64,000 nt of DNA. Origin: an uncultured Gammaproteobacteria bacterium (GTDB taxonomy: Bacteria > Pseudomonadota > Gammaproteobacteria > JACCXJ01). A program made the translations under genes and the position numbers. The stretch spans positions 207,989 through 271,988 of the forward strand of contig CAVXTM010000010.1 in the NCBI GenBank assembly GCA_963764725.1, read 5' to 3'. The notes under the pieces are model-generated. The model saw only the letters and a program-made list of their open reading frames with translations, was not told the DNA's origin and searched no databases. Below are positions 33,562-42,169 of the stretch, in pieces. Numbering within the stretch: position 1 is the stretch's first letter; each line of letters opens with the position of its first letter.

Positions 33562-36500
33562 ATGAATAATCAGTTCTTCGAAAGGCCCATTCTCAACTCT
33601 CCCTACGAGTACCCGTCTCGTTACTGGGAGCTCGATGAGCAGGGCCAGCCGACTCAGAGAATCATCGAGCGCCGCCGCCGCGCCGAGTTCATCACGCCGA
33701 TTCCGAAGCCGAAGAAAGCGCAAGGGTTCGGCTGAACAAACGTCCTTTCGTCTTCGACGAAGGCAAAGGACTCTCCACCGCAGAAGCAGCAGTACGACCA
33801 CACAGCCATCATCAATTCGAGTTCGCCAGCAGGTGGACCAGTGGCGGCGCTTGCCGAATCCCAACGACTGGCGCGTAACCCCGGAGACGGCGCGCCTGCT
33901 TCAGCACTGGCGGCATCACAAATTCAGCAGCATCCGTCCGTTCTTCTGTCAGATCGAGGCGGTCGAGACCGCCATCTGGCTGACCGAAGTCGCACCCCAG
34001 GCGGGCAAGGTGGGCGAGGGTTTTCTTGAACACCTGGCCAATGCCAACAACGACGCCAACCCGGAGCTCATGCGCCTCGCGCTGAAGCTGGCCACCGGTG
34101 CCGGCAAGACCACGGTCATGGCGATGCTCATCGCCTGGCAAACCATCAACGCGGTGCGGCGACCGCAGAGCAAACGCTTCACGCGCGGCTTTCTCGTCGT
34201 CGCACCGGGCCTCACGATCAAGGATCGCCTGCGCGTCCTGCAACCGAACGATCCGGACAGCTACTACCAGAGCCGCGAACTGGTTCCGGGCGACATGCTG
34301 GACGACGTGAACCGCGCCAAGATCGTCATCACCAACTATCACGCCTTCAAGCTTCGCGAGCGGATCGATCTTTCCAAGGGCGGACGCTCGCTGCTCCAAG
34401 GGCGCGGCGAAGAGCTGAACACCCTCGAAACCGAGGGCCAGATGCTCCAGCGGGTGATGCCCGATCTGATGGGCATGAAGAACATTCTCGTGCTCAACGA
34501 CGAAGCCCACCACTGCTATCGAGAGAAGCCGGGAGCCGATGACGAGGAAGATCTGAAAGGGCGACGACAAGAAGGAGGCCGAGAAGAACAACGAAGCCGC
34601 CCGTCTCTGGATCTCCGGCCTTGAAACCGTCAATCGCAAACTCGGCGTCGCACGCGTGATCGACTTGTCCGCGACGCCGTTCTTTCTGCGCGGCTCAGGC
34701 TATGCCGAGGGCACGCTGTTCCCGTGGACGATGAGCGACTTCTCGCTGATGGACGCCATCGAGTGCGGCATCGTCAAATTGCCGCGCGTGCCGGTGGCCG
34801 ACAACATTCCCGGCGCGGAGATGCCGATGTTCCGCAACCTCTGGGAACACATTCGCTCGAAGATGCCGAAGAAGGGGCCGAGGCAAAGCCAATACGCTCG
34901 ATCCACTGAGCCTGCCGCCGCAACTCCAGACAGCACTCGAAGCCCTTTACGGTCACTACGAAAAGACCTTCGCCTTTGGGAGAAGGCCGGAATTCGCGTG
35001 CCTCCCTGCTTCATCGTGGTCTGCAACAACACCTCCACCTCCAAGCTGGTATACGACTTCATCTCCGGCTTTCACCGGCAGAACGATGACGGCTCTAGCA
35101 CTCTTGGTAAACGGGCGCCTCGCGCTGTTCCGCAACTTCGACGAGCACGGCAACCCGTTCCCGCGGCCGAACACACTGCTCATCGACAGCGAGCAGCTCG
35201 AATCCGGCGAGGCGCTGGATGACAATTTCCGCGCTATGGCCGCCGATGAGATCGAGCGCTTCCGCCGCGAGATCCTCGAACGCGGCGGCCAAGCTCGCCG
35301 ATGAACTGCAAAAGGGGAAAGAACTCGATGATGTGACACTGCTCCGCGAAGTGATGAATACCGTCGGCAAGTACGGCCAGTTGGGCGGATCGATTCGTTG
35401 CGTCGTTTCCGTCTCGATGCTCACCGAGGGCTGGGATGCCAATACCGTCACCCACGTGCTCGGCGTGCGCGCCTTCGGCACCCAGCTCCTGTGCGAGCAG
35501 GTCATCGGACGGGCGCTGCGCCGCCAGTCCTACGACCTGAACGAAGAAGGTCTCTTCAATGTGGAATACGCCGACGTGCTCGGCATTCCCTTCGACTTCA
35601 CCGCCAAGCCGGTGGTCGCGCCGCCACAACCGCCGCGCGAGACCATCCAGGTCAAGGCGGTGCGGCCCGATCGCGATGCGCTCGAAATCCGCTTCCCGCG
35701 TGTCGAAGGCTATCGCGTCGAGTTGCCCGAGGAACGGCTGACCGCCGAGTTCAACGAAGACTCCGTGCTCGAACTGACGCCGGATCTGGTCGGGGCCACC
35801 GAAACGCAGAAACTCCGGAATCATCGGCGAGACGGTGGACCTCAATCTCGTGCATACCGGCGACGTGCGGCCGTCGCAGGTCGCTGTACGAGCTGACGTC
35901 GCACCTGGTGCTGACGCAAGTGGCGCGACGCCCGGCGAAGACCGCAAGCTGCACCTGTTCGGCCAGCTCAAGCGCATCGCCAAGCAGTGGCTCGACGGAG
36001 TATTTGGTTTGCAAAGGCGGTACCTATCCTGCGCAGCTCAAGTACAAGATGCTGGCCGACATGGCCTGCGAGCGGATCATGGCGGGAATCACGCGCGAGT
36101 TCGATCGGCGAGCGCCCCATCAAAGCCGTGCTCGATCCCTACAATCCCACCGGCTCCACGAGCACACGTCAACTTCAACACGTCAAAGCCGGATCGCTGG
36201 GAAACCGACTCCCGCCGTTGTCACATCAACTGGGTCGTGCTCGACAGCGATTGGGAGGCCGAGTTCTGCCGCGTGGCCGAATCGCACCCGCGTGTCCGAG
36301 CCTACGTCAAGAACCACAACCTCGGTCTTGAAGTGCCTTACCGTTACGGCTCGGAGACGCGCAGGTACCTGCCCGACTTCATCGTGCTGGTGGACGACGG
36401 GCACGGCGAAGACGATCTCCTGCACCTCATCGTCGAGATCAAAGGCTACCGGCGCGAGGACGCCAAGGAAAAGAAATCCACCATGGACACCTACTGGGTG

Positions 36501-36650
36501 CCTGGCGTTAATCATCTCGGGACACATGGCCGCTGGGCTTTTGCCGAGTTCACCGAGGTCTATCAGATCGAGGCCGACTTCGAAGCGAAAGTCAAAGCCG
36601 AGTTCAATAAGATGATCGAAACGTATACCGGTCGAATCGGCCCGGAGTAA
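33562..36650 (+). pseudogene. Type III-like restriction endonuclease/helicase Res subunit (BPTD_3080-like), with many frameshifts in this sequence
   Basis: Stitched frames give MNNQFFERPILNSPYEYP, LKLATGAGKT (Walker A), LNDEAHH, SATP, MLTEGWD, EQVIGRALRR and nuclease YLPDF...VEIKG. About ten or more single-base indels, which may be sequencing errors. Confidence 0.9.
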
Positions 36651-36744
36651 TCTAGTCAATCAAATAGCAGCAACACGCATCAGGAGGCATCATGGCCAAT
36701 ACGCTACCGTTGGACAAAATGTCGCCTGGAAGAACGGCTCCAAC

Positions 36745-37035
36745 ATGAACAGAAACGAAACATTGAAACTCCTGCAAACCCACAAGCCGTACTTGGCCCG
36801 GGAGTTCGGCGTTACCGCTTTGGCTCTGTTCGGCTCCATCGCGCGCGATGTCGCGGGCGCGAACAGCGACGTGGACATCCTGATCGCCTTCGATGGCCCA
36901 GCGACATCAAAGCGTTATTTCGGTGTCCAGTTCTATCTGGAAGACCTGCTGGGCCGCCCTGTGGATCTGGTGACGGTAAAGGCACTGCGTCCGGAGCTGC
37001 GCTCCCACATCGAGCGAGAGGCCATCCATGTCTAA
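36745..37035 (+). CDS. MNT minimal nucleotidyltransferase antitoxin
   Basis: LFGSIARD...SDVDILI (GSx10DxD), LEDLLGRPVDLV. Confidence 0.92.
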   Translation: MNRNETLKLLQTHKPYLAREFGVTALALFGSIARDVAGANSDVDILIAFDGPATSKRYFGVQFYLEDLLGRPVDLVTVKALRPELRSHIEREAIHV

Positions 37036-37387
37036 TGGAGTGCGGGGCGAGCGCGAGTGGCGTTTCTACGTAGACGACATGATCGTCTTCGCGGAAAAGG
37101 TTCTGTCTTACACCAACGGATTGGATCAATCCAGTTTCGTTGCCGACGGGCTCACCTACGATGCCACCCTGCGCAACCTGGAGCTGATCGGCGAGGCGGC
37201 TACCCACATCCCCGACGCGGTGCGCGCCGCTCATCCCGACATCCCGTGGCGGCTGATCATCGCCACGCGCAACCGCCTGATCCACGCCTACTTGGGCATT
37301 GACGACGATACGCTCTGGAGCATCGTCCAGGACGACATCCCTGCGTTCCTGACGGCCTTGCAGAAGCTCAAGCAAGCCCACCAGTGA
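37028..37387 (+). CDS. HEPN (DUF86/HepT) RNase toxin
   Basis: RNLELIGEAA, IPW and the RNRLIHAY (Rx4HxY) HEPN motif; overlaps the MNT gene. Confidence 0.92.
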   Translation: MSNGVRGEREWRFYVDDMIVFAEKVLSYTNGLDQSSFVADGLTYDATLRNLELIGEAATHIPDAVRAAHPDIPWRLIIATRNRLIHAYLGIDDDTLWSIVQDDIPAFLTALQKLKQAHQ

Positions 37388-39258
37388 TGTGACCGCAACA
37401 ACGGATAGCTCTCCATGGCTAGAAACAAATCGGACACCAAGAAGACCGTCGAAACCCTCAAGCACGACGAGGCCACGCGCAAAAACATTCCGACTGCTGA
37501 ATATCAGTCGGTGATGCAGAAGCACGAGCAGGCCCCCGTCCGCGTGACCTACGAGCGCGGTGCAGCCGGGCTCGACGATGCGAAAGAGCAGCGCAACCGC
37601 GACCTCGATCCGCAGCTCGTCTGGCGCGGCAAGGACGAGCAGGACTGGAGCGACCTCGTCGTCCACGCCCCGCCGCTCTACATCCAGGAGAAGGTACACC
37701 CCAAGGTGCTCATCGACGACCTGCTCAAGCAGACTCGCGAGCAGCGCGCGCAAGAAGTCGGCGCGCAGTTCGATCTCTTTGGCGACTTCAACGGCATCCC
37801 CGAGGGCGTGGACAAGACCGAGTTCTACCAGCACGACCAGAACTGGTCGAACCGCATGATCCTCGGCGACAGTCCTACAGGTGATGGCGAGCCTCGCCGA
37901 GCGCGAAGGACTGCGCGGCAAGGTGCAATGCATCTACCTCGACCCGCCCTACGGCATCAAATTCAACAGCAACTTCCAGTGGACTACCACCAGCCGCGAC
38001 GTGAAGGACGGCAAGGCCGACCACATCACCCGCGAGCCAGAGCAGGTCAAAGCCTTCCGCGACACCTGGCGCGACGGCATCCACAGCTACCTCACGTATC
38101 TGCGCGACCGGCTGACCGTGGCGCGGGATTTACTGACGGATTCGGGTTCGATCTTCGTGCAGATCGGGGATGAGAATGTGCATCGCGTGCGGGCGGTGAT
38201 GGATGAGGTGTTTGGGGACGAGAACTTTATCGTTGCAAATCGACTTCGCCACAACGACGAGCCAAACCTGCGCAATTCGTGTCGAGTATTTCAGACCACA
38301 TCCTTTGGTATTGCAAAGGACAGATTGCAGACGAAATATCCGGGAGCTGTAGCTTTCGAAGGATCGTGAGAGGCAGGAAACATCTTCGTTTCGCGCTTTA
38401 CGAACACGATTTCGTAATCTCACGCAATCCTGCAAACGAGAATGCTCGGCTGTCGGTATTTGGTGATCTTCACTTCTCGGTCCGGCGGGGAGTCCTCAAC
38501 GGCGACCATTCCGTCTGGTTTGGCCACGACTTTATCCCGAACTGCCGGCGGAGTGGAAGACCAGCTTGGTCGGCTTAGAAAGGTTAGGGAAAGCCCATCG
38601 ACTTGGTCTACGTGGCAAGAATGCCTTCTACAAGAGATACTTCGACGATTGGCCATTTTCCCCAATGCCAAACGCTTGGACTGGACACTCAATCCGGAGG
38701 GCTCGGTGTTGAGAGCAGGATCTATGTCGTTCAGACGAACTTTAAGGTAATAGAGCGCTGCATCCTGATGACCACCGACCCCGGCGACCTTGTCCTCGAC
38801 CCGACCTGCGGTTCCGGCACCACCGCCACCGTCGCCGAGCAATGGGGCGGGTCGCCGCTGGATCACGATTGACACCTCGCGCGTGGCACTGGCGCTTGGC
38901 CCGGGCTCGCATCATGGGTGCGCGCTATCCGTATTACCTGCTGACCGATTCGCGCGAAGGCCAGATCAAGGAAGCCGAAGTGACCCGCACCGTGCCGTCC
39001 TCGCAAGCGGTCCGCGGCAGCATCCGCCACGGATTCGTTTACGAGCGTGTGCCGCACATCACGCTCAAGTCCATCGCCAACAACGTGGAGATTGACGTCA
39101 TCTGGGATAAATACCAGGCCATCCTCGAACCTCTGCGCGAGCAACTCAACGAAGCTCTTGTAGGATAATGGTATGGACTCCTCCCCTCCCTAACGGCATC
39201 GTGATGTGCCAAAGTGGAGGATGTAACAACCACTTGAACAGAAGAGGAGAAGTCCGCT

Positions 39259-40275
39259 ATGAACGTTACAACAATCGGGTTAGACATTGCAAAGAATGTC
39301 TTTCAGGCACACGGTGTGGACGGGAAGGGGAAGGTCGCGGTGCGCAAGTCGCTCAGGCGAGGGCAGGTCTTGGCGTTCTTCGCCAACCTCGACCCTTGCG
39401 TGGTAGGGATCGAAGCCTGCGCCGGCGCACACTACTGGGCGCGGGAGCTGGGGAAGCTCGGGCATACGGTCAGGCTCATCAGCCCGCAGTTCGTCAAGCC
39501 CTACGTGAAGGGGAACAAGAATGACAAGAACGACGCGGAGGCGATCTGCGAGGCGGTGGGGCGCCCGAACATGCGTTTTGTGCCGGTGAAGAGCACCGAG
39601 AGCCAAGACATTCTGGCGCTGCACCGGGTACGCAGTGGGTTGGTAAAGGAACGCACCGCGCAGGCAAACCGGCTGCGGGGTTTGTTAGGCGAGTATGGCA
39701 TCGTCATCGGTCAGGGCTTGGCGCAGGTACGCAAGCGCCTGCCGGAGATCTTGGAAGACGGCGAGAACGGCCTGAGTGGCTTGGCGCGAGAGCTGTTTGC
39801 CGATCTCCACCGGCAGGTCCTGGAGCTGGACCGGCAAGTGGGGGCCTACGGCGTCAAGCTCCAAGGGCTCTACCATGCGAGCGAGGCGTGCCAGAGGATT
39901 GGCCGGATGCCGGGGGTAGGGCCGATCACGGCGACGGCGGCCGTCGCCTCGGTCGGTGATGGTCGAGCGTTCGAGTCCGGGCGGCAGGTCGCGGCCTGGG
40001 TGGGGCTCGTGCCGCGGCAGGATTCGAGCGGGGGCAAGCCCAAGCTCCTGGGGATCAGCAAGCGGGGCGATACCTACCTGCGCACTCTGCTCATCCACGG
40101 GGCGCGGTCCGTGGTGAAGGCGGCGGCCAAGAAGACCGACGCCCAGAGCCGGTGGATCAACGACCTCGTCAAACGGCGCAACAAGAACATCGCAGCGGTG
40201 GCGGTGGAAAAGAGCTCGGGCGATCTGGGCGCTCCTGAGGCGAGACGAGGGTTACCGCGCGCGGGTTTCGGTTGA
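39259..40275 (+). CDS. IS1111-type DEDD recombinase/transposase (frameshift near the C-terminus)
   Basis: IGLDIAK, GIEAC, KNDKNDAEAI, catalytic Ser motif SSGGK. The normal tail (ARAIWALLRRDEGY) continues in another frame from about 40210. Confidence 0.94.
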   Translation: MNVTTIGLDIAKNVFQAHGVDGKGKVAVRKSLRRGQVLAFFANLDPCVVGIEACAGAHYWARELGKLGHTVRLISPQFVKPYVKGNKNDKNDAEAICEAVGRPNMRFVPVKSTESQDILALHRVRSGLVKERTAQANRLRGLLGEYGIVIGQGLAQVRKRLPEILEDGENGLSGLARELFADLHRQVLELDRQVGAYGVKLQGLYHASEACQRIGRMPGVGPITATAAVASVGDGRAFESGRQVAAWVGLVPRQDSSGGKPKLLGISKRGDTYLRTLLIHGARSVVKAAAKKTDAQSRWINDLVKRRNKNIAAVAVEKSSGDLGAPEARRGLPRAGFG

Positions 40276-40289
40276 CGCGTAGCACGCGA

Positions 40290-40535
40290 GGCCACAGGGT
40301 TTTTCACCTTCCACCCAGTTGCGAAGCATCTTTCGAAGCGATGGCAAAGCGGTCAGACCGGTGTTTTCAGCAATCCGCTCAGCGCATGGGCCTTCGAGGC
40401 CGGTAGGATGATTGAGATGAAGACACGCGGATATTCCATCGGGGCCAGAGGCATCGCAAGCCTCATTGACAGGCCGGATATATGGGAGCAACTGCGCTCA
40501 CCGACCGCTGCAATCAAAGCGAAAAGATGCTTGCA
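40290..40535 (+). ncRNA. Predicted seekRNA/bridge RNA of the IS1111-type element (ends approximate)
   Basis: CTCAGCGCAT (40378-40387; 9/10 match to the target bottom strand), hairpin GGCCTTCGAGGCC, then GTAGGATG (40403-40410; identical to the target top strand). Confidence 0.75.
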
Positions 40536-41123
40536 AATCGGGAGGAGTCCATATATGGGCTGAGGCACGAAGCCCATCAATCGCGACCGATGGGCTTCGT
40601 TCTTGCTCAGCCCATCCTACCAAGACGTTCAAACCCTTCGAAGAATGGGAGATTCCACGCGAGGTCGATGCCAAATGGCCGGACGCAGCCAAGAAGCTCC
40701 ATGCCCAATGGTGGGAACAACGCATCGCCCGCCAGCGTGAGATCGATGCGTCGATCGCCGCCAAGGCCGAGTTCGAATACCTCTACGACAAGCCCTACGA
40801 CAACAAGAAGATAGTTCGCGTGGCCGGGCCGTTCACCGTCGAGAGCCTTTCCCCGCACCGCATGCTCGGCGTGGACGAGAACGACGAATTGATTGATCGC
40901 GTCGCCGAACCCGGCGCTGACTACAGCGCCAAGCAGTCTTTTCCCCAGATGATCCTGGAAAACCTCAAAACCGCCGGCGTCCAGCAAGCACATAAGGAAG
41001 ACAAAATCACCTTCACCGCGCTTACGCCGTGGCCCGGCGATCTGGTCTGCGCCGAAGGCCGGTATGTCGAAACGCACCCCTCACCCCAACCCTTGTATGT
41101 TCTATTTTGTAGAAATTAATGAA

Positions 41124-42169
41124 ACGGGCTATCCACTTAACGCAAGTCACCGCTATATGTTGGGGTCCGGGCTGTTGACGATTTGGCGGTAAGACACTGG
41201 CGGCGTCGCCACGGCCTGTTGCATCAGGCGGTAGAAGAGAAGCCCGCGGGAGCGAGAGGTGCGCCGGTTGAAGCGAAACGTGTATTCGTCGAGGTAGTAG
41301 TCGAGGTACCTGCCACTTACCGCGCCTTGGTGAGTTCCGAGCAGCCAGCGTTTGAGCAGAGAGGCGATGCGGTGGACACCGGGCATCAGGACATGGGCCG
41401 GGTCTCCGCTGTCGGAGAGATTCGTCTTGATGCGCGTATATCCAGACTTCGTCATGTCGTTGTACCCGCCCCAGGCGTCGGTGAGAACTTCCGAACCGGG
41501 CTCAATGCTCTCGCGCACGAAAGGGACGAGATTGGCGCCGGAGGCGTCGGCCACACGTCTCATGCGCACGCGTCCAAATCCCTTCGGTTCGTGTAGTTCG
41601 ACGGCGATGACCACAATCTCCTTTCGTTCTGCTCCACGGCCACGCTTACCGCCTTTTTCGCTGCCTCCTACGAGCGTCTCGTCCACTTCAACGCGACCAT
41701 GAAGCCGCTCGCGCCCAGCTCGCACCATCGCGCGTCGCAGCTTATGCAACCAGGTCCATGCCGTTTGATAGCTTCCCAACCCCAGAACCCGCTTCAGGCC
41801 GAGAGCGTTGGCTCCATGCTTCTGACTCGTCACAAACCATATCGCCGCCAACCATGTCTTCAACGGGATACGCGTTCGCTCGAACATCGTACCTGCCGTG
41901 ACCGAGATCTCTGCACCGCAATCCCGACAATGCAGGTAACCTCGTCCCGTGATCCAGGGCGCACCGCTGGACCCACAGCGTGGACAGTGGTAACCCGCTG
42001 GCCAGCGAAGGCCCGCAAGATACTCGCGACAGCCCGCATCGTCCTCGAAAAAATCATTGAACTCGCCGAATGTCCGAGGGTAGTCGGACCCGCCGACTGG
42101 CCCTTCCCCTGTCCCCATGGGTAGCAAACACTAGATGTTGTGGTGACTTGCGTCAAGTGGATAGCCCGT
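41124..42169 (-). mobile_element. IS1595-family insertion sequence
   Basis: 28-bp TIRs ACGGGCTATCCACTT(A/G)ACGCAAGTCACC with one mismatch; 8-bp TSD TTAATGAA (41116-41123 and 42170-42177). Confidence 0.95.
41153..42127 (-). CDS. IS1595-family transposase
   Basis: Zn ribbon CPRC...CRDC, VEVDET, VLTD, YLDEYTFRFNRR. Confidence 0.95.
   Translation of the reverse strand: MLPMGTGEGPVGGSDYPRTFGEFNDFFEDDAGCREYLAGLRWPAGYHCPRCGSSGAPWITGRGYLHCRDCGAEISVTAGTMFERTRIPLKTWLAAIWFVTSQKHGANALGLKRVLGLGSYQTAWTWLHKLRRAMVRAGRERLHGRVEVDETLVGGSEKGGKRGRGAERKEIVVIAVELHEPKGFGRVRMRRVADASGANLVPFVRESIEPGSEVLTDAWGGYNDMTKSGYTRIKTNLSDSGDPAHVLMPGVHRIASLLKRWLLGTHQGAVSGRYLDYYLDEYTFRFNRRTSRSRGLLFYRLMQQAVATPPVSYRQIVNSPDPNI

Follow-up and report, generated by a model that had tools for sequence, protein, structure and literature searches.

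An IS1111-group insertion sequence with a predicted guide RNA aimed at a GTAG-headed, REP-like repeat

What directs an insertion sequence (IS) to the same point of a small palindromic repeat, in the same orientation, at one site after another? This question is raised by the element at 39166..40555 (+ strand) of the window studied here, a 64,000-nucleotide stretch (G000:C10:207989-271988) of a source genome (G000) of 4.2 Mb and ~59% G+C, assembled in 19 contigs. An earlier note on this DNA had read the element as an IS1111-type IS whose own RNA is programmed against a family of repetitive extragenic palindromic (REP) sequences headed by GTAG. Following an integrated analysis of its ends, its transposase, its 3' non-coding region and its relatives, our results indicate that the 1390-bp element is very probably an IS1111-group member of the IS110 family, equipped with a guide RNA aimed at a GTAG-headed repeat. 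The seekRNA (or bridge RNA) mechanism, the natural re-aiming of such elements and the targeting of REPs by one of them (ISPa11) were already published in 2024, and the element adds another member to these systems, leaving the known mechanism unchanged.

The ends of the element were placed from a 99%-identical second copy in the same genome, from the geometry of its subterminal inverted repeats (sTIRs) and from an IS-free orthologous site in the unpublished genome G011. At the left junction, GTAGGA (39160..39165, +), which is the left half of the target and the head of repeat unit 1, is followed by TAATGG; at the right junction, CCATATA, ending at 40555, is followed by TGGGCTGAG from 40556. The sTIRs, ATGGACTCCTCCC (39173..39185, +) and GGGAGGAGTCCAT (40540..40552, +), are 13 bp long and are separated from the tips by a 7-nt left extension, TAATGGT (39166..39172, +), and a 3-nt right extension, ATA (40553-55). 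This geometry fits that of the IS1111 group, with sTIRs of 7-17 bp, a 7-nt left extension and a short right one, and so does the placement of the element's longer non-coding stretch, which comprises 280 nt downstream of the transposase gene versus 93 nt upstream. Target bases are not duplicated upon insertion, as the orthologous empty site in G011 consists of GTAGGA directly joined to TGGGCTGA, and insertion was site- and orientation-specific, in the same manner, in the five insertions examined (5/5). The DEDD transposase, the 13-bp sTIRs and the 280-nt 3' non-coding region were all present at 39166..40555, and every sequence item that the earlier note had listed was found in its place.

The transposase gene is an open reading frame (ORF) of 338 aa (39259..40275, +), which encodes a DEDD (RuvC-like) N-terminal domain (PF01548, E 6e-17) and a Transposase_20 C-terminal domain (PF02371, E 3e-24), and whose tail is frameshifted after ~40207. 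The intact protein of the second copy, located on contig C8, has 342 aa, within the 330-350 aa of the IS1111 group, and its frame would stop at 40280-82 if continued in the window. This protein matches the NCBIfam model NF033542 ("IS110 family RNA-guided transposase") with 364.5 bits against a cut-off of 140 and, over 98% of its length, is 41% identical to plasmid genes that carry the annotation IS4321 family transposase, relatedness to the group having been judged on these genes. The residues GLVPRQDSSG found in the translations fit the C-terminal motif GL-P----S(T)G, which is given for the IS1111 group in parts of PMC11187229. By sequence, the closest solved structures are those of ISCro4 and IS621, with a similarity confined to the C-terminal domain (E about 1e-4).

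What sets the target appears to lie downstream of the gene, where a structured guide RNA is predicted at 40352..40502 (+), the extent of our covariance model R1. Its 5' portion constitutes a target-binding module (40358..40430, +), in which an outer stem (40358-69 with 40418-30; helix 1, compensatory change in 11/12 pairs) surrounds two guides and an inner hairpin, GGCC-TTCGA-GGCC (40389..40401, +; helix 2, compensatory change in 5/5 pairs). The first guide, guide T (CTCAGCGCAT; 40378..40387, +), would pair with the right half of the target on its top strand, differing from the reverse complement of ATGGGCTGAG at one of ten positions, and the second, guide B (GTAGGATG; 40403..40410, +), is identical to the target top strand across the insertion point (8/8) and would pair with the bottom strand. 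These two segments and the hairpin between them had been singled out in the earlier note, with the same 9/10 and 8/8 matches. When the 280-nt non-coding region was shuffled 50,000 times, GTAGGATG was found in 235 shuffles, a guide T match of 9/10 in 401, and the pair in 5. Furthermore, the guide order, with the top-strand match located 5' of the bottom-strand match, and the overlap of both at the crossover correspond to the published arrangement of IS1111 seekRNAs, as given for ISEc11, ISPa11 and ISKpn4 in parts of PMC11187229.

The fold was modeled from a seed containing 40352-40502 of the window and the loci L012, L036 and L071, with five helices assigned by hand; an RNAalifold consensus pairing part of guide B with upstream bases was dropped, its pairs being broken in relatives. 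R1 was then searched in 96 sources, namely 80 public related loci and 16 loci from the family, yielding 75 matches in 72 of them. Every match of at least 20 bits shares the strand of the transposase, and those in the oriented loci start about 60-200 nt past the end of the protein match; two minus-strand matches were weak (14 bits). Standard pairs occupied 91.8% of cells in the resulting 75-row alignment, compared with 28-42% when the partners were slid, and compensatory changes were observed in 29 of the 32 pairs, in an alignment that is fitted to R1, favouring the structure, and whose sequences are related to each other. Conservation extends from about 40300 to the right end in relatives of the same taxonomic family. 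A search of Rfam 15 over 38900-40900 (E up to 10) retrieved no relevant match, the three listed matches being sub-threshold and unrelated; the relatives gathered here therefore provide a ready alignment for a curated RNA family.

If the RNA guides insertion, its guides should follow the flanks from one relative to the next. For each row of the alignment, the ends were defined by searching the sequence before the gene against that after the RNA for the longest inverted repeat, and then applying the 7-nt/3-nt rule; 26 of the 75 rows were left out (no repeat, mostly at contig ends; a repeat not starting (A/G)TGG; or too little flank) and 49 were kept. Among these, L012 and L019 derive from unpublished genomes, and the remainder are public except for the two copies of the source genome and L015. 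Two segments, namely the 8 nt that follow the inner hairpin and the complement of the 10 nt that precede it, were compared with the rejoined flanks, with one base of slack. Guide B agreed with its cognate flanks at 6.16/8 positions on average and guide T at 7.29/10 (49 loci each), versus 3.30 and 3.89, respectively, in 2332 non-cognate pairs; summed, the guides reached 13.45/18 versus 7.19/18, and 41/49 loci were at or above the 99th percentile of the non-cognate pairs. The natural guide/target pair proposed in the earlier note is hence not confined to the window, as guides vary with flanks over the 49 related loci.

These data bear directly on a protein-only explanation, according to which the transposase would recognize the REP hairpin by shape or sequence, the guide matches would be incidental or captured, and the RNA would be a 3' untranslated region. 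Many targets of the family are palindromic, which makes structural recognition conceivable. However, guides and flanks change together in those 41 relatives, whose targets are quite different; the guides occupy fixed positions in a fold maintained by compensatory changes; and the RNA was required in deletion and reprogramming experiments on other IS1111 members, as reported in parts of PMC11187229. We thus consider the protein-only explanation highly improbable, and retain guidance by the RNA.

Under RNA guidance, the sequences of close relatives, those with 72-85% identity to the window element, are consistent with re-aiming by changed guides. For instance, L076 (public, 72% identity) carries other guides, which match its own right flank. 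In the unpublished loci L012 and L036, one position of guide B and several of guide T differ from the window, and the flanks display matching changes, on both sides in L012 and on the right in L036, whose left flank is off the contig. The closest relatives carry guides for several GTAG-headed variants, which suggests that the lineage re-aims within REP sequence space.

The second part of the RNA corresponds to a donor module. On its 3' side, ATATATG (40478..40484, +) repeats the last 5 nt of the right end followed by TG, and on its 5' side, ATTCCATCG (40433..40441, +) is partly complementary to the left end TAATGGTAT; between them lie helices 3 and 4 (40443..40475, +), paired in 99.6% and 98.1% of cells. 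The earlier note had listed weaker matches of this second loop to the circle junction, namely ATTCCATC (40433-40) and ATATAT (40478-83), and they fared differently. The latter held over the family: the 5-mer at 40478-82 equals the right-end tip in 49/53 loci, versus 27% for non-cognate pairs, with the tip variants ATA, GTA, CTA, ACA and AGA all tracked. The former proved marginal, with a small excess of cognate over non-cognate matches that is given below among the points weighing against our reading. Bridge RNAs were predicted by Durrant et al. for 93% of IS1111 elements, the bases that bind the donor frequently lying within a multi-loop, and ISPa11 was among the six elements that they inspected, as stated in parts of PMC11208160.

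The two bases after the right-end guide deserve separate mention, as they coincide with the two bases that open the right flank in 39/49 loci and with those that open the left end in 14/49, the dominant pattern being TA in the element versus TG in the RNA and in the target. A G-T wobble on the circle, or a reading of the integrated junction during excision, possibly lies behind this pattern. That the donor-loop dinucleotide follows the target core dinucleotide rather than the left end of the element itself, as a rule of this IS1111 subfamily, is a speculative proposal to which we assign a low probability. If functional, the donor loop would be tuned to the integrated junction of right end and target, that is, the excision substrate; alternatively, the dinucleotide would constitute a built-in mismatch on the circle. 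Either way, it could determine how IS1111-type elements balance excision against insertion.

Expression of the transposase and the RNA may depend on the circular form. A -35 box, TTGCAA (40531..40536, +), is followed by 17 nt and by TA (40554-55), which meets TAAT (39166-69), the first four nucleotides of the left extension, only when the ends are joined; the -10 box is then completed, creating TTGCAA-17-TATAAT, as had been pointed out from the letters of the window. A consensus scan of 39000-40700 found no sigma-70-like promoter in the linear element. With a spacing of 16-18 nt allowed and the integrated junction as control, a promoter was found across the joined ends in 34/52 loci versus 2/52 when the right end was joined to the genomic flank under the same criteria; a stricter, fixed-position criterion gave 20/54.

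Taken together, these features outline a mechanism in which the element would excise as a circle, and the promoter created by its joined ends would drive the DEDD transposase and a structured RNA of roughly 150 nt from the 3' non-coding region, in one transcript. In the first module of this RNA, the right half of the target would be paired on its top strand with CUCAGCGCAU and the left half on its bottom strand with GUAGGAUG, with an overlap of the two at the crossover. The element would thereby come to lie after GTAGGA and before TG, at a distance of two bases from the GTAG head of the small hairpin repeat. In the second module, AUAUAUG would read the right end and AUUCCAUC, less well, the left end, with insertion proceeding without target duplication. 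By analogy with published work on other IS1111 members, we infer that the RNA is made, that the transposase binds it and that it is needed for movement.

Do other copies occupy the same position of the repeat? The earlier note had proposed this check, and the answer was affirmative for the C8 copy, for a remnant and for two copies in a Methylobacter genome. The C8 copy (G000:C8:28178-29585) is intact, 99% identical to the window element and flanked by GTAGGA and TGCGCTGTG, and a decayed 350-nt remnant (G000:C11:13786-14121) also has GTAGGA on its left; no further IS110-family gene was found by tblastn of the source genome. A public complete genome of Methylobacter (L075 and L078; 74-75% protein identity) contains two copies at the same position of the same repeat, between (G/A)TAGGA and TGC(G/T)..., one of them interrupted by another insertion; searching this genome for many copies of an element with the same guide retrieved these two. 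Moreover, contigs from two other samples match the window from 39159/39160 onward and carry a different sequence before that point, and several contigs stop at 40557.

Shared flanks of this kind could also stem from a single ancestral insertion that was copied with a larger segment, instead of repeated targeting, an explanation that would suit the presence of only two full copies per genome and the likeness of the repeat units. Against it, beyond the 15-nt target no relatedness is seen among the flanks of the window, C8 and C11 copies, the two Methylobacter sites differ beyond the repeat, and the contigs from other samples diverge immediately upstream of GTAGGA, which leaves segment copying with a negligible probability and repeated targeting as the preferred explanation.

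The target itself is part of a 71-nt doublet (39160-65 and 40556-40620) formed by two inverted units, both headed by GTAG and with a stem of 8 bp. At 40556..40620 (+) lie the right half of the target and what remains of the doublet, and the other arm provides a second, unoccupied copy of the 15-nt target (40606..40620, -), which is an exact match. REPs and REPINs are typically headed by GTAG, followed by an imperfect palindrome of about 30 nt, and are often arranged as inverted doublets. The repeats of the source genome share this form; their stems are compensated (GATGGGCT/AGCCCATC and GATGCGCT/AGCGCATC, among other cases), most of them form doublets, and a profile of seven units retrieved about 16 units in its 4.2 Mb (E up to 1). 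An abundant family of GTAG-headed REPs was considered and rejected, as perfect hairpins with this head are not enriched in the genome (30, versus 16-34 for other 4-mer heads). REPs are also associated with RAYT genes, which encode Y1 transposases; six Y1_Tnp matches were found in the source genome, none of them less than 2 kb from a listed repeat unit. The window doublet departs from the high copy number and the extragenic location of REPs, and the target is REP-like in form and low in copy number. From the claim that the element targets a GTAG REP family, the part concerning the repeat stands, since a GTAG-headed repeat is hit at every copy; the part concerning the family does not stand as worded, with only about 16 units and this one located inside a gene.

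The gene in question encodes a type III methyltransferase, broken here (N6_N4_Mtase matches at 37881-38369 and 38603-38872), and the doublet lies in frame within its C-terminal part. In G011 the orthologue is an open frame of 949 aa with the same doublet inside and no IS, that is, the empty site mentioned above. At the point of the doublet, a palindromic repeat of another kind is found in the loci L128, L131 and L132 and none in L130, and another repeat is found slightly further downstream in L129 and L131. In this linker of the methyltransferase, small repeats seem to have landed more than once and to be tolerated.

Several observations weigh against an RNA-guided element aimed at this repeat. 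Guide T matches 9/10 at both occupied sites of the source genome, with the mismatch at different positions, and a perfect 15-nt site at G000:C11:278122 is empty; the exact complement of guide T is ATGCGCTGAG, a sister variant of the repeat. The pairing with the left end is weak, both here (6/9) and over the family (cognate 6.89/9 versus 6.09 non-cognate). Eight of the 49 loci scored below the 99th percentile of the non-cognate pairs, including the badly aligned rows L069 and L093 and the mis-registered ends of L113. R1 was built partly from two unpublished genomes (L012 from G008 and L036 from G002), and 24/96 sources gave no R1 match; about 20 of these have a truncated transposase or reach a contig edge, and L106 showed a weak match once the filters were off, but L040, L055 and L059 have a full-length gene and no RNA match even with filters off. 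The RNA itself is predicted: one contig from an RNA library (X15) covers 40249-40443, possibly by DNA carry-over, and another (X16) belongs to a 92%-alike relative, these two contigs not showing transcription. In four sequencing runs, available as contigs from which RNA ends, strand or level cannot be read, no circle junction, excised site or rejoined target was found. Finally, the transposase of the window copy is frameshifted: in comparison with the C8 copy, 5 bases are missing after 40207 and there are 2 substitutions.

This last point raises the question of whether the window copy is still mobile. The C-terminal frameshift that had been suspected near 40210 is real, and since the 5 extra letters are present in near-identical contigs of two metagenome runs, as well as in the C8 copy, the alteration lies in the window copy. 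The window copy may accordingly be a fossil, with a guide/target pair that is a historical record, an explanation that concerns activity and not identity. Through the 5-base deletion, ~37 codons at the end of the 342-codon frame are shifted, the host gene has itself already decayed, with an IS1595 transposase gene abutting it, and the contigs of the four runs contain no circle or empty-site joints. Conversely, in its RNA region, at both ends and in its flanks the window copy is either identical to the C8 copy or of equal quality, the C8 copy could supply the transposase in trans, and the 99% identity of the two copies indicates a recent divergence. A dead copy is therefore a possibility to be kept in mind, though not the one we favor; instead, the window copy, whose RNA is identical to that of C8, probably depends on the intact C8 copy for transposase.

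Among known systems, a close likeness is to ISPa11, an IS1111-group element of Pseudomonas aeruginosa, in which, as in the window element, the transposase gene is followed by a 3' non-coding region with a transposase-bound seekRNA (a predicted one in the window), according to parts of PMC11187229 and PMC11208160. Both elements carry the top-strand match 5' of the bottom-strand match and occupy a fixed position in a REP; they differ in host, repeat and guides, as judged from the published description, and the RNA of ISPa11 was purified and sequenced, whereas that of the window is predicted. ISEc11 and ISXne4, also of the IS1111 group, resemble the window element in a circle-junction promoter and a need for a seekRNA, both of them predicted for the window element, and in close relatives re-aimed by the guide segments alone, but their targets are not REPs, and experimental proof exists for ISEc11 only. 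IS621 and ISCro4, of the IS110 group (PDB 8wt6 and 9t56), are bridge recombinases that have in common with it a DEDD enzyme and an RNA, predicted in the window, whose two loops read the sequences around a short core in target and donor, and IS621 also targets REPs; in these elements, however, the RNA precedes the gene on its 5' side, the guides follow the reverse order and the sTIRs measure only 2-3 bp. The plasmid elements IS4321 and IS5075, of the IS1111 group, are those with 41% transposase identity over 98% of the length, and have sTIRs with 7-nt and 3-nt extensions, as described in parts of PMC11187229.

Five insertions from two genomes, together with an empty orthologous site and ~50 relatives in which the guides follow the targets, would make the element a clean natural example of RNA-guided insertion of the IS1111 type. 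It also offers natural data on mismatch tolerance, as the two occupied sites of the source genome pair 9/10 with a single guide and differ in the position of the mismatch.

Other traces of this lineage were observed. L028 (G010:C155, about 1501-1678) is a miniature derivative of a related element, made of ~100 nt from the left end fused to ~77 nt from the right end; it has neither transposase gene nor guide modules, and its left flank is GTAGCC. In the source genome, L144 (G000:C18:705320-705419, -) is an orphan guide-RNA remnant that kept the donor module and lost the target module by deletion (26.6 bits), and tblastn found no transposase gene near it. The loci L012, L024 and L036, from the unpublished genomes G008 and G002, and the X16 contig display ~81% DNA identity, and in them an additional ~190-295 bases separate the transposase stop from the conserved RNA region; at the right end of L036, the last ~25 nt are present as a tandem duplicate before the flank.

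The surroundings of the element in the window correspond to a decayed type III restriction-modification locus (33635-39165 and 40556-41119). The res gene is split into several ORFs, with a ResIII match at 33635-34624 and an endonuclease domain at 35835-36650, and the mod gene shows apparent frameshifts in the assembled sequence, one near 37870 and two near 38855 and 38900. Between res and mod, 36745-37387 encodes a nucleotidyltransferase (PF01909) and a HepT-like RNase (PF01934), a module of the toxin-antitoxin type. Directly after the last open stretch of mod lies an IS1595-family transposase gene (41153-42127, -; PF12762 and PF12760), which may truncate mod.

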